Below are positions 9,794-31,535 of a DNA stretch of 32,000 nucleotides, piece by piece. Origin of the DNA: Candidatus Saccharimonadota bacterium (GTDB taxonomy: Bacteria; Patescibacteriota; Saccharimonadia; Saccharimonadales; Saccharimonadaceae). The translations under genes were made by a program, and so were the position numbers. The notes beneath the pieces were generated by a model that saw only the letters and a program-made list of their open reading frames with translations, ran no database searches and had not been told where the DNA came from. The stretch is taken from contig MKSO01000001.1 in the NCBI GenBank assembly GCA_001897305.1, positions 210,001-242,000 of the forward strand. The letters are read 5' to 3'. The stretch's first letter is position 1. Each line of letters opens with the position of its first letter.

Positions 9794-9822
9794 TTGAAGT
9801 CTGAACAAAAAAAGAGTATAGT
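9794..9822 (+). promoter_or_regulatory. Promoter of the T-box leader/cupin/ileS unit (TTGAAG-17-TATAGT)
   Basis: -35 at 9794-9799, 17-nt spacer, -10 at 9817-9822. Confidence 0.45.
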
Positions 9823-10094
9823 AAAAATAGAAGCGTTTGAGTGGTAATCAGCTACGAATACATTAAGTATACGTTTCGGGAAGAACGACTTTTGTATTCA
9901 AAAGGAAACCTACTAAAAAGTAGCATTTCCACCACCTGCGAGGATGCAAAACTCTACTAGACCCCGACGCGATCCCGGCGTAACAGTGGAATAATGAAGT
10001 GCTGAAGTTTAAACTTTCAGAAATCGGATGGTACCACCCGTTTTGCGGGTTCCGATGGATGAAGGTTTTTATTATTTTAAAAGGAAATCCATGT
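9823..10094 (+). promoter_or_regulatory. T-box-type riboswitch leader (probable tRNA-Ile sensing)
   Basis: AAATCGGATGGTACCACCCG (10021-10040) matches the T-box consensus AANNNGGGUGGNACCNCG. It folds as a canonical antiterminator: ATCGGA (10023-28)/TCCGAT (10051-56), 7-nt bulge TGGTACC, ACCCG/CGGGT, loop TTTTG. A stem-III-like hairpin precedes it at 10002-10020. Candidate Ile specifiers are ATC-A (9847-9850) and ATT-A (9862-9865). Located upstream of ileS. Confidence 0.65.
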
Positions 10095-10577
10095 ATGAGT
10101 GAGATACATACACTTAGAAACAGTGTAAGCCTTGGGGAAGGGGCTGAATTTCGTAATGGTGAAACATGCGAGGGGGTAGCGTATGCACTCCTGACCTCAG
10201 AGGGTGAAGTTGATCCTACTCGTGACTTTGCTCGTATTCAAGTAACCCGTCGGTATCCGCTGGATGGGTTGCTCTACGCGCAAAATAATGGTTCTCAGGA
10301 ACGAGTTGAAGTTACTAGTGGTGAAGGCTATTTGCTTCGAGCTAAAACTTCCGGATATATGAGTAGAATAGCGCTTCGGCCAGGTGTGGTAGTGACTATC
10401 GAGCCGGGAGAACTATTTGCTTGGTGGCAGACCGCCTGGGACGACACAAAAGAACCGCTTGGTTTTGATATGATTTGCACGCCGCCGTTTGACCCTGAGC
10501 AATATACATACATTAGCATTGATGAAGGTATTGCCGTTAACGATAATGAAAGGAAGTTGGATGAAGTTCAAAGCTAA
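10095..10577 (+). CDS. Cupin-like small beta-barrel protein (hypothetical)
   Basis: 160 aa starting at ATG 10095, with AAGGAAA 8 nt upstream. Beta-rich pattern VEVTSGEGYLL...LRPGVVVTIEPGELFAWW. Its 3' end overlaps the ileS start by 17 nt. Confidence 0.55.
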   Translation: MSEIHTLRNSVSLGEGAEFRNGETCEGVAYALLTSEGEVDPTRDFARIQVTRRYPLDGLLYAQNNGSQERVEVTSGEGYLLRAKTSGYMSRIALRPGVVVTIEPGELFAWWQTAWDDTKEPLGFDMICTPPFDPEQYTYISIDEGIAVNDNERKLDEVQS

Positions 10578-13500
10578 TAGTCGCCGCCGTGCCCTTGAAT
10601 ACGAAAAAGAGTGGGTTGCTCAGTGGAAGCAAGATAATACGTTCGAAAAGTCGGTCGAGAACCGTTCTAAAGACGACGCCTATGTGTTCTACGATGGCCC
10701 ACCGTTTATTACTGGTGTACCGCACCACGGAACACTCCTTAGCTCTATTGTGAAAGACGCCGTGCCGCGTTATTGGACTATGAAAGGCAAGCGTGTCGAA
10801 CGTGTATGGGGCTGGGACTGTCATGGCCTGCCAGCGGAAAACTTTGTTGAAAAACAATTAAATATCGTTGATCGCCGCCAAATCGTCGCCAACTCGAGCG
10901 ATGAAACACCGCTTGATAAAGACGGCCAGCCGCTACCAACTATTAGTCTTGAAACCTACATCACCAAAGCTCGTGAAAGCATGGTGGCCAACAGCGAAAG
11001 CTGGGAAGGGGTGATTGACCGTATTGGCCGTTGGGTTGACTTCAAGGGTGCCTATCGGACTATGGATAAAGACTTTATGGAGAGTGTGTGGTGGGCCTTT
11101 AAGCAGTTGTACGAAGCTGGCAAAATTTACGAAGGCAAGAAAGTGTTGATGTATGACATCAAATTTGCCACGCCTGTTTCTAAAGCCGAAGTAACAATGG
11201 ACAATGACGCCTACCAAACCGTCACCGACCCATCAGCATATGTAAAGTTTGTATTCGAGCACGACGAAGCGTTTACAAAAGTATTTGGTGACTATCCAAA
11301 AGATGTTGCGGCTCTAGGCTGGACGACAACTCCATGGACATTGCCAGGCAACACTGCCCTTGCAGTGAGCCCTACTATGACCTATTGCTTGGTCGAAGTG
11401 GGCAACGATAGTCTAGTTATTGCTAAAGATCGCCTAGAGGCAGTGTTGAAGGGTGATAAAAACGAGCCACTTGAATACCGCGTTATAAAAGAGATGAGCG
11501 GTACTGACCTTGACGGTCTCTCGTATAAACAATTATGGAATGCACCAGTGAAAGATATTGGCCCTCATGCCACTCTTGCTATCGGTTCATTCAACGATTC
11601 AAGCGCTGAAAATTTTGAGCCAGGTCAGCCATGGGCAAGCAGCTGGAAGGTATACGCTGCTGATTTCGTGAGTGCCGAAAGCGGTACGGGTATTGTCCAT
11701 ATAGCGCCAGCCTATGGTGAGGACGACTTTGAACTGGCGAAAGAAAAGCTTCTTCTTGTCGTGGACCCGATCGATGACAACGGCTATTACGCGCAGCCAC
11801 TGCGCGACTGGCTCTATAGCCTCATGCCATGGCGAGATGCGACGGCTCCTTTAGAATGTTTTGAAGCAAATAAAGATATCGCAAAGGGCCTCGAAAAGGC
11901 TGGTATCGTCTGGAAAATCGAATACATCCGCCACGAGTACCCATTCAACCCACGCTCCAAGCAGCGCATTATGTACCGCGCCATTCCATCATGGTTCTTT
12001 GACATTCAAAATTCAAAGCCATTGATGCTTGAGCAAAACGAACATATTAACTGGTTTCCGCCTCACCTCAAGCACGGCCGCTTCCAAAAAAATATCGAAC
12101 AAGCGCCCGACTGGAACCTTAGCCGTGACCGTTTCTGGGCAACGGCTATGCCGGTGTGGAAAGGTGATAACGGCAGTATAAAAGTTGTTGGAAGCTACGC
12201 CGAACTCAAAGAACTCAGTGGGGTGGAGCTCGACGATTACCACCGCCCTTGGGTTGATGACATCACCTTCGATATTGACGGTGAACACTTCACCCGTATC
12301 GATAAAGTGCTTGATGGCTGGTTCGAATCGGGCTCAATGCCATTTGCACAGCTGCACTATCCATTTGAAAACCAAGAAACCTTCGAGAAAAACTACCCAG
12401 CGGACTTTATCGTCGAATATATCGGGCAGGTGAGGGCGTGGTTTTACTACGTACATGCTGTAAATACCGCGCTGGCTGACATTGGTGCCTTTGGTGCTGA
12501 TAGCCAGAAGCCCGAAAAAGAGGCTTTCAAAAACGTTATCACCACTGGCGTGATTGCTGGTAATGACGGCCGCAAGATGAGCAAGAGCCTTGGTAACTTT
12601 ACCGACCCGAATGAGTTGATGGATAAGTTCAGCGCCGATAGTCTCCGCTTCTTACTCTTGGGTAGTCCATTACTTAGTGGTGAGGACTTTGCGCTTCAGG
12701 ATAAAGATGTTGGCGACGTTGCTCGTAAGCTGACTATGATTTGGAACATGTACGATTTCTTTACCATGTACGCCGAAGTCGACGGCTGGGAATTTAACGG
12801 CGATTTGAACGATCCATTGGAAAGTCTGACCAACCCGCTCGACATTTGGATCGTCTCGCGCTTGCACCAGTTAGTCGGCGAAGTCGAAAAACACATGGAC
12901 GGCTATAACATTCCTGATGCACTCAGCCCAGTGCTACCATTCCTCGACGATGCCAGTAACTGGTATGTGCGTCGCAGCCGCCGCCGTTTCTGGAAGAGTG
13001 AAGATGATGGTGATAAAAACGACGCCTATCGCACACTGCACTATGTACTGGTTCGCTTGGCTTATGTTTTGGCGCCGTTTACGCCGTTCTTGGCTGAGGA
13101 GCTATACCGCAAGTTAACTGGTGACGATGAATCAATTCATCTTAAAGACTGGCTTTCAGCCGGTGCCGTTAATGAGCAGGTAATGGGTGAGATGGAGACG
13201 GTACGCGAGTATGTCAACCAAGGCCTCAGCCTGCGGGCAAAGGCGGGTATAAAGGTTCGACAGCCACTGGCTAGTGTCACGGTCCCGGGTGGCGTCACCT
13301 CATTCGATCAAGCTTCTATTTTAGAAGACGAATTGAATGTGAAAGCCGTTATTGTTGCGACTGATACAGATGCTGAGATTGCTCTCGATACCACCATTAC
13401 TCCTGAACTTCATCGTGAAGGCCTCATGCGCGAAGTTATTCGCCATGTGCAAGCGGCGCGTAAGGATGCTGGGTTGAATATCGACGACAGGATCAGCCTA

Positions 13501-13668
13501 AGTCTAAATACTGAAAATGAGGAGCTTCGCAAAGCACTCGAAGAGTACAGCGCTACGATTATTGCGGAAACTCTTGCTCATGCGCTTGTTTCCGGCGAAG
13601 CATTTGCCTATACAACAACGGTACTCGTGGAAGGCGCCGAGCTTACGGTATCTTTGGAAAAGTCCTAG
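10561..13668 (+). CDS. ileS: Isoleucine--tRNA ligase, type 2 (eukaryote/actinobacterial-like)
   Basis: FYDGPPFITGVPHHGTLL (HIGH region, type-2 form), KMSKSLGN, CP1 editing domain, and no C-terminal Zn-finger domain. ATG 10561 has AGGAAG upstream, and the N-terminus (MKFKANSRRRALEYEKEW) is typical. Confidence 0.95.
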   Translation: MKFKANSRRRALEYEKEWVAQWKQDNTFEKSVENRSKDDAYVFYDGPPFITGVPHHGTLLSSIVKDAVPRYWTMKGKRVERVWGWDCHGLPAENFVEKQLNIVDRRQIVANSSDETPLDKDGQPLPTISLETYITKARESMVANSESWEGVIDRIGRWVDFKGAYRTMDKDFMESVWWAFKQLYEAGKIYEGKKVLMYDIKFATPVSKAEVTMDNDAYQTVTDPSAYVKFVFEHDEAFTKVFGDYPKDVAALGWTTTPWTLPGNTALAVSPTMTYCLVEVGNDSLVIAKDRLEAVLKGDKNEPLEYRVIKEMSGTDLDGLSYKQLWNAPVKDIGPHATLAIGSFNDSSAENFEPGQPWASSWKVYAADFVSAESGTGIVHIAPAYGEDDFELAKEKLLLVVDPIDDNGYYAQPLRDWLYSLMPWRDATAPLECFEANKDIAKGLEKAGIVWKIEYIRHEYPFNPRSKQRIMYRAIPSWFFDIQNSKPLMLEQNEHINWFPPHLKHGRFQKNIEQAPDWNLSRDRFWATAMPVWKGDNGSIKVVGSYAELKELSGVELDDYHRPWVDDITFDIDGEHFTRIDKVLDGWFESGSMPFAQLHYPFENQETFEKNYPADFIVEYIGQVRAWFYYVHAVNTALADIGAFGADSQKPEKEAFKNVITTGVIAGNDGRKMSKSLGNFTDPNELMDKFSADSLRFLLLGSPLLSGEDFALQDKDVGDVARKLTMIWNMYDFFTMYAEVDGWEFNGDLNDPLESLTNPLDIWIVSRLHQLVGEVEKHMDGYNIPDALSPVLPFLDDASNWYVRRSRRRFWKSEDDGDKNDAYRTLHYVLVRLAYVLAPFTPFLAEELYRKLTGDDESIHLKDWLSAGAVNEQVMGEMETVREYVNQGLSLRAKAGIKVRQPLASVTVPGGVTSFDQASILEDELNVKAVIVATDTDAEIALDTTITPELHREGLMREVIRHVQAARKDAGLNIDDRISLSLNTENEELRKALEEYSATIIAETLAHALVSGEAFAYTTTVLVEGAELTVSLEKS

Positions 13669-15228: not shown

Positions 15229-15265
15229 AATAAAAGTCAATGTCGTTACGATATTGACTTTTATT
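15229..15265. other. Perfect 13-bp palindrome (terminator-shaped hairpin) in an AT-rich divergent intergenic region
   Basis: AATAAAAGTCAAT (15229-41), 11-nt loop, ATTGACTTTTATT (15253-65). Flanked by a second inverted pair AGCATAA (15217-23)/TTATGCT (15271-77). Confidence 0.5.
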
Positions 15266-31498: not shown

Positions 31499-31535
31499 AA
31501 AAATAGACTCCAACCGGGGTCTATTTTTCTTTTTG
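31499..31535. terminator. Bidirectional intrinsic terminator after tsf
   Basis: 13-bp stem AAAAATAGACTCC/GGGGTCTATTTTT (one G-U pair), loop AACC, followed by a T-rich tract. It contains the stop codon of the convergent ORF. Confidence 0.75.

Follow-up and report, generated by a model that had tools for sequence, protein, structure and literature searches.

The textbook example of a structured RNA that reads another is the T-box riboswitch. In the accepted scheme of switching, uncharged tRNA stabilises helix A1 of the hairpin that receives the tRNA 3' end, and charged tRNA lets helices A1 and A2 be sheared into a terminator; recent structural and single-molecule work suggests instead that the amino acid is sensed by Stem III together with its flanking purines. 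The closest known relatives of the leader described here are the ileS T-boxes of Actinobacteria (M. smegmatis, M. tuberculosis and N. farcinica; PDB 6UFG/6UFH/6UFM; Sherwood et al. 2015, as relayed in PMC7583486), which have a reduced or ultrashort Stem I. A short or ultrashort Stem I that lacks the elbow-binding platform is an actinobacterial class II trait (PMC7583486, PMC12990946), and TBDB applies its short-Stem-I model to Actinobacteria only. Our subject is a leader that fits this description. It occupies positions 9839-10078 of a 32,000-nt stretch of contig MKSO01000001.1 (the whole stretch is called the window, and all coordinates are window positions) and lies 5' of a cupin-like open reading frame (ORF) and ileS. 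Comparative sequence analysis makes it very probably a genuine isoleucine-specific T-box leader. Its output is likely to be a terminator hairpin that encloses the A1/A2 hairpin whole and competes with Stem III.

Routine annotation misses the leader, whose Rfam T-box score of 41 bits falls short of the threshold of 93: at gathering thresholds, Rfam gives no matches anywhere in the window and none in 16 orthologous loci or leaders. A permissive scan aligns the T-box family RF00230 with 9898-10057 at 41.1 bits (E = 9e-8 locally, 5.7e-6 window-wide; curated gathering threshold, 93 bits). The alignment is good in its 3' half, with high posterior probability over the A1/bulge/A2 region, and squeezes 91 positions of the Stem I model onto 27 nt. 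The "Stem I" that Rfam aligns (9904-9936) was rejected; it belongs to a hairpin within a lineage-specific insertion in Stem II (9886-9955), 60 nt downstream of the conserved specifier hairpin. A long hairpin at 9856-9900 in the minimum-free-energy (MFE) fold was set aside as not conserved in relatives.

The best 80 relatives of the encoded isoleucyl-tRNA synthetase (IleRS) in a species-level genome collection are nearly all from Candidatus Saccharibacteria (TM7, Patescibacteria), at 59-73% identity. Motif search, alignments and a covariance model place the leader 5' of ileS in ~67 of 80 Saccharibacteria loci. The covariance model finds exactly one copy in the window and accepts the leader in 55 metagenome contigs; it also removed 25 chance matches from the 80 returned by the metagenome pattern scan. 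Conservation with covariation extends over the entire leader in more than 100 independent sequences, and ileS lies 3' of it wherever the downstream sequence suffices, in some cases beyond inserted genes that take up as much as ~2.9 kb. Leaders of this type with a specifier other than Ile or a target other than ileS were looked for, and there were none. An earlier reading of the DNA, made without database searches (the sequence-only reading), had proposed a T-box-type leader ahead of the cupin-like ORF and ileS. The proposal is borne out by the RF00230 E-value and by covariation in relatives, with the qualification that a score significant by E-value is still below the curated threshold.

The decoding element is an ultrashort Stem I (consensus GAGYGGYUAUCANCCRCGA), which is predicted to present its codon in a terminal loop resembling an anticodon loop. 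The 7-nt loop, TAATCAG (9845-51), carries the specifier AUC (9847-49), followed by the purine A9850. The specifier is AUC in 56/56 aligned leaders and the next base is a purine in 55 of the 56; metagenome leaders likewise have AUC wherever Stem I is readable. This codon would decode tRNA-Ile(GAU). The short helix covaries, pair 2 being C-G in 28 cases and U-A in 25, and pairs 3 and 4 changing from G-C to A-U. The sequence-only reading had been unsure of the specifier. Its first choice, ATC-A (9847-50), which sits in a small hairpin close to the predicted transcription start, has the invariant AUC. Its alternative, ATT-A (9862-65), was rejected as not conserved, since it lies in a lineage-specific insertion (9858-9875) that is missing from most of the aligned leaders. 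Differing small hairpins occupy the same site between Stem I and Stem II in other leaders (L019, L023, L038, L056, L072). Many lineages also have a further small hairpin directly 5' of Stem I (for example, L020, L028, L035, L040, L073 and L078); the window and its nearest relatives have CGUUUGAG in its place, with the predicted transcription start a few nucleotides upstream.

The T-box core, AAATCGGATGGTACCACCCG, is at 10021-10040. Within the hairpin formed there (coordinates in Table 1), A1 is paired at all six positions in 58/58 leaders in ~14 sequence variants, A1 and A2 pairs show many double changes, and the UGG of the bulge is conserved; the bulge's UGGU could pair with the ACCA end of tRNA. 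The assignment of A1, bulge and A2 in the sequence-only reading therefore stands, as does the stem-III-like hairpin that it had noted before the core. This is Stem III (10002-10020), which recurs in almost every leader as AAGYG-hairpin-AA, with AAGYG (an RRRxG string, as PMC7583486 defines the motif) and AA nearly invariant. Stem III is weak (~-5 kcal/mol). The TGGTACC bulge, whose conservation in orthologous leaders that reading had proposed to check, keeps its UGG and becomes UGGUAAC or UGGUAUC in some lineages (TGGTAAC in L016, L027 and L062; TGGTATC in L025, L030 and L055). Two discriminator features that are supposedly critical vary among these leaders: the 3' ACC of the bulge (to AAC or AUC) and the G-U pair at the base of A2.

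The sequence-only reading saw no recognisable terminator, and for the expected kind this is so. A complement to the 3' strand of A1/A2, CGGGTTCCGAT, was sought downstream and is not there; a pattern scan of the leader for simple terminators found none; and a canonical terminator in the window was rejected, with only 4 of the 6 bases of the A1 3' strand pairing downstream, at -2.5 kcal/mol. A covarying hairpin with a T-tract is nevertheless present elsewhere in the leader, and it was overlooked because the strand that opens it is taken from the 3' side of Stem III and not of A1/A2. In most leaders, the loop and 3' strand of Stem III are complementary to a segment that starts 3-4 nt after A1 and is followed by a T-tract. 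The A1/bulge/A2 hairpin is thus enclosed intact within one long terminator hairpin, and the outer stem of that hairpin is mutually exclusive with Stem III, since its 5' strand consists of the Stem III loop and 3' strand. (Outer-stem positions are numbered outward from A1, position -n pairing with +n.) The window leader belongs to this nested class, which is the majority; between its A1 and its outer stem is a 3x3 purine internal loop, GAA/GGA.

Several comparisons speak for the outer stem. It is paired at 89.1%, against 75.9% when shuffled and at most 66.5% when its strands are slid (the alignment being ungapped at these columns), and double-sided changes are seen in 9 of its 10 pairs. None of 500 shuffles reaches the observed value on four of five measures, and two do so on the fifth. 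Taken with A1 and A2, the pairing is 93.5% against 76.3%. Mean duplex energies of the flanks are -14.9 kcal/mol for cognate, -7.8 for non-cognate and -5.3 for shuffled strands. RNAalifold, given no structure, arrives at the same nested fold, which is also the MFE fold of six test loci kept outside model building. Distal stem positions on which the search pattern placed no constraint are 91% paired in 45 distinct metagenome leaders, compared with 61% for non-cognate strands. The T-tract is equally regular: a run of at least four T beginning +10 to +18 after A1 is found in 49/50 nested-class leaders (8.6% of random windows), at least seven T in 9 nt in 47/50 (1.9% of random windows), and 98% of the metagenome leaders have a T-tract.

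In the window itself, nascent RNA ending at A1 folds as Stem III plus A1/A2 (-17.5 kcal/mol). With the downstream strand added, the terminator conformer is at -23.3 kcal/mol and the Stem III conformer at -17.1 kcal/mol. The MFE fold of the 83 nt from 9997 to 10079 is the nested hairpin, at -25.9 kcal/mol (z = -3.65), and 0/200 shuffles fold as well. The T-run begins 10 nt after A1. Both the stem and the T-tract of an intrinsic terminator are present here, a covarying outer stem running into TTTTTATTATTTT.

Sister lineages reach what looks like the same end by other routes. Six leaders (L059, L066, L067, L069, L077 and L080) have a canonical T-box terminator, made of the A1 3' strand, a GNRA loop, its complement and a T-tract. 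Four others (L011, L043, L057 and L070) have a third topology, in which a T-tract comes after a downstream GGGCGGG that is paired to the 5' half of A2 (GCCCGCCC), and the 3' strands of A2 and A1 are looped out. The three helices compete with three separate parts of one discriminator and each runs into a T-tract, which points to termination as the common output. Classic terminators (A-tract, hairpin, T-tract) stand between genes elsewhere in the window, at 15229-65 and 31499-528. These two structures (15229-15265 and 31499-31528) are long and perfect and look like bidirectional intrinsic terminators; the first overlaps a sub-threshold Rfam match to STnc380 (E = 0.09) that is probably meaningless.

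The mechanism that we propose would place transcription of a two-gene operon, the cupin-like ORF and then ileS, under Ile-specific T-box control. The AUC in the Stem I loop would read tRNA-Ile(GAU), assisted by Stem II and the IIA/B element, and the ACCA end of the tRNA would pair with the UGGU of the A1/A2 bulge. Stem III and A1/A2 would fold first during transcription. If the tRNA-Ile is uncharged, its 3' end, the RRRxG and AA purine strings and the docked Stem III would lock together, so that the downstream strand could not displace the 5' strand of Stem III; with the terminator blocked, RNA polymerase would pass the T-tract and transcribe the operon. If the tRNA is charged or absent, Stem III would remain undocked, the more stable outer stem would form by strand exchange and transcription would end at ~10070-10078. 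The decision step of canonical T-boxes, the stabilising or shearing of helix A1, is inapplicable to such a switch, because A1/A2 is intact in both folds.

Published work on other T-boxes is relevant at this point. Binding of the tRNA 3' end requires Stem III and the purines on both sides of it (PMC7583486). In the M. tuberculosis ileS T-box, a mimic of charged tRNA undocks the GAG linker and Stem III and leaves the antisequestrator fold largely unchanged (PMC12647780). The length of Stem III, ~9 bp in nested-class leaders against 4-5 bp in canonical-terminator lineages, is consistent with its being the switch point. On balance we favour, with some reserve, the whole of the following interpretation: the A1/bulge/A2 hairpin is constant in the ON and OFF folds, the aminoacylation signal passes only through Stem III docking and the purine latch, Stem III is the true antiterminator, and the family would represent the first T-box of the candidate phyla radiation (CPR), the first co-transcriptional T-box with an ultrashort Stem I and a case of three interchangeable terminator topologies on one sensor. 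A literature search gave no link of T-boxes with Saccharibacteria, Patescibacteria, CPR or TM7; it left most subscription journals uncovered, and an earlier description is possible.

A number of observations weigh against a nested terminator governed by Stem III. The window's outer stem is among the weakest of the family (nine A/U-rich pairs, one of them G-U; duplex energy, -9.9 kcal/mol), and two A interrupt its T-tract. The G-U pair at the base of A2, to which the role of main steric sensor has been ascribed, survives in only 27/48 leaders (alignment columns 100/144), and in the window the corresponding pair, 10036/10050, is A-U. T-boxes with an ultrashort Stem I have so far been described only as translational, and a long Stem I is said to be necessary in transcriptional T-boxes so that tRNA is captured quickly (PMC7583486). 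No tRNA-Ile gene (anticodon GAU, A73) turned up in the window or among the 60 genome loci and 32 metagenome loci that were searched for one. The bulge stays exposed in the terminator conformer, and for that reason tRNA might bind both states. Termination by the Saccharibacterial RNA polymerase at a composite hairpin is a prediction, and so are tRNA binding, discrimination of charged tRNA and transcript release.

The alternative that fares best, which we consider improbable, is that the sensor and the long hairpin are real and the switch bypasses Stem III, either because tRNA sitting on the exposed bulge hinders the terminator or because the hairpin is a leaky constitutive terminator or stabiliser and control lies elsewhere. 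With A1/bulge/A2 intact in both conformers, tRNA could dock on the terminator itself, and the weakness of Stem III also suits this alternative. Against it, Stem III, with its RRRxG and AA flanks, is conserved and covaries despite its overlap with the outer stem, and it is longer in the nested class than in lineages with canonical terminators; and an A1/A2 hairpin without Stem III does not bind tRNA appreciably (PMC7583486).

Distinctly less probable is a translational T-box of the actinobacterial kind, with a leader that is always transcribed and in which tRNA binding frees the Shine-Dalgarno sequence (SD) from a sequestrator helix. The sequence-only reading had raised this in suggesting that the expression platform may be translational, and the decoding domain speaks for it, the ultrashort-Stem-I architecture being known only from translational ileS T-boxes; the window, moreover, lacks a canonical terminator and has a weak ATGGAT/ATCCAT pairing that touches the SD region. 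That pairing, which the same reading had singled out, is not conserved in relatives and is absent from L034 and L063, the nearest leaders. With its position 21-32 nt after A1, the SD is 3' of the T-tract, and its pairing probability is 0.09 in the window (mean across the class, 0.38), so that an SD sequestrator is not supported. A conserved hairpin and T-tract in 49/50 leaders, with an unsequestered SD beyond them and clear canonical terminators at the same site in sister lineages, tell against the suggested platform. The idea that the leader is a T-box in decay, which came with ileS by descent or acquisition and has ceased to regulate, can point to the score under the Rfam gathering threshold and to the window copy's large insertions, weak outer stem and A-U in place of the G-U sensor pair, and it is very improbable in view of invariant or nearly invariant functional positions (AUC, UGG, ACC, RRRxG, AA and the S-turn purines) and compensatory changes in every helix among genomes whose IleRS are only 59-73% identical, which together argue for purifying selection on the structure.

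The remaining parts of the leader and its neighbourhood are collected in Table 1. Stem II carries purine strings of the S-turn type in the window (AAGAA 9881-85 and ACUAGA 9956-61), corresponding to the strings GAAGAA and AGUAGA that are conserved across leaders, and its base pairs covary (G-C 22, C-G 15, A-U 6, U-A 4). At 92 nt it is far longer in the window than the typical 35 nt, and it carries a 70-nt distal insertion. The insertion has a UGCGAG motif (possibly a T-loop-like pentaloop, UGCGA) in common with L059, L063, L066, L069 and L080; that it might stand in for the absent elbow-binding platform of Stem I is pure speculation. Support for the predicted IIA/B pseudoknot is moderate: the first two IIA pairs are nearly invariant, and 55% of leaders, compared with 14% of shuffled controls, have a loop complementary to the linker over at least four Watson-Crick pairs, the sequences differing among leaders.

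The promoter-like TTGAAG-17-TATAGT of the sequence-only reading is where it was said to be, with a predicted transcription start at ~9829. Its consensus match alone is not above chance (3 such sites found, 2.4 expected). In relatives, TATAAT-like boxes occur 12-14 nt before the conserved CGTTTGAG, and the spacing between a -10-like box and the conserved leader start is thereby kept.

Table 1. Features of the ileS leader and the genes downstream (window positions)
Feature	Coordinates	Strand	Basis or details
Putative sigma-70-type promoter	9794..9822	+	TTGAAG -35, 17-nt spacer, TATAGT -10; consensus scan, 9/12 matches
Ultrashort Stem I	9839..9857	+	4-bp helix GTGG 9841-44 / CTAC 9852-55; conserved G-A/G-A flanks
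Lineage-specific insertion between Stem I and Stem II	9858..9875	+	contains ATT-A; fold uncertain
Stem II	9876..9967	+	base helix TCGGG 9876-80 / CCCGA 9963-67
Predicted Stem IIA + IIB pseudoknot	9968..9990	+	IIA CGC 9968-70 / GCG 9978-80; loop UCC 9973-75 with GGA 9988-90
Stem III module	9997..10022	+	AAGUG (RRRxG, 9997-10001); CUGAAGU 10002-08 / ACUUUCAG 10013-20; 3' AA 10021-22
tRNA 3'-end-binding hairpin (canonical "antiterminator")	10023..10056	+	A1 ATCGGA 10023-28 / TCCGAT 10051-56; bulge TGGTACC (UGGUACC) 10029-35; A2 ACCCG 10036-40 / CGGGT 10046-50, loop TTTTG; RF00230 alignment, covariation
Nested terminator outer stem, 5' strand AAACUUUCA	10011..10019	+	Stem III loop + Stem III 3' strand
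Nested terminator outer stem, 3' strand UGAAGGUUU	10060..10068	+	covariation, duplex energy
T-tract TTTTTATTATTTT	10066..10078	+	directly after, partly inside, the outer stem
SD (AAGGAA) and start codon of first regulated ORF	10081..10097	+	ATG 10095; sequence
Cupin-like ORF (160 aa)	10095..10577	+	between leader and ileS; own Pfam match none
ileS (1035-aa isoleucyl-tRNA synthetase)	10561..13668	+	Pfam tRNA-synt_1, Anticodon_1, DUF5915

The 160-aa ORF finds no match in a Pfam search. L028, L072 and L075 have homologues of it in the corresponding slot; these match Cupin_3 or Cupin_2 (best E = 6.5e-6), which makes the cupin label a reasonable one, and the profile gives weak matches to cupin structures. 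A mini-ORF of three codons (ATG TAT GAG TGA, 10091-10102) begins 4 nt before the cupin-like ATG, overlaps the ORF and has the same SD. The ileS start overlaps the end of the cupin-like ORF, and the junction sequence includes a separate SD for ileS at 10549-56. Just 5' of ileS, within the cupin-like ORF, is a promoter-like TTGATG-17-GATAAT (10519-10547; 9/12 matches, a consensus match only), which, if active, would yield an ileS transcript independent of the T-box.

The slot between leader and ileS is an insertion hotspot: in ~25 genomes it holds one to several unrelated small genes, up to ~2.9 kb, of GNAT-like, Nudix-like, CYTH-like, ArsC/Spx-like, glycosylase-like and cupin-like types (besides the window, L004-L008, L015, L021, L026, L028-L030, L032, L040, L043, L044, L049, L052, L055, L063, L072, L073 and L075). 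All genes inserted there would fall under tRNA-Ile control. One locus, L022 (DATMTU010000112.1), comes from a metagenome-assembled genome labelled Dongiaceae (Alphaproteobacteria); its contig encodes an IleRS of Saccharibacteria type (63% identity), probably through contamination in binning.

Saccharibacteria live as obligate epibionts on Actinobacteria; their genomes are tiny, and few of their regulators are known. The leader would extend T-boxes to this group and offer a conserved native regulatory part for bacteria whose genetic tools still lag, and it indicates that annotation at Rfam thresholds overlooks a whole T-box clade. If the proposed output is right, the family contradicts the working rule that an ultrashort Stem I means translational control and that transcriptional control needs a long, elbow-binding Stem I. 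It also looks like a natural experiment on which element senses the amino acid: A1/A2 would never be broken and only Stem III would be contested, and for that reason the Stem III docking step could be isolated by a termination assay.

How, then, does the leader stand among known systems? With the actinobacterial ileS T-boxes (a likeness judged from published descriptions) it has in common the ileS target, an Ile specifier, a Stem I without the elbow-binding interdigitated double T-loop motif (IDTM), the S-turn purine string of Stem II with the IIA/B pseudoknot, and RRRxG-Stem III-AA followed by A1, a UGGN bulge and A2; the resemblance that the sequence-only reading noted is apt for the decoding domain. 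The hosts differ, Saccharibacteria (CPR) here and Actinomycetota there, and so does the output, a hairpin with a T-tract in place of their SD sequestrator. The OFF helix of M. tuberculosis needs the antisequestrator broken (PMC12647780), whereas here A1/A2 would stay intact and the competing strand pairs with Stem III. With class I T-boxes (B. subtilis tyrS and glyQS; RF00230) the leader shares a tRNA-sensing design ending in a predicted intrinsic terminator and T-tract, the same bulge, A1/A2 and Stem III purine motif, and an ON fold less stable than the terminator. It departs from them in lacking a long Stem I and a terminator exclusive with A1/A2, as well as in its RF00230 score: Stem I is a 15-nt hairpin and not ~90 nt with a K-turn, internal specifier loop, AG bulge and distal loop, and the 5' strand of the terminator is the 3' strand of Stem III and not the 3' halves of A1/A2. 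Its sister Saccharibacterial ileS leaders have the same Stem I, Stem II, IIA/B, Stem III and bulge, and differ from it in the topology of the terminator.

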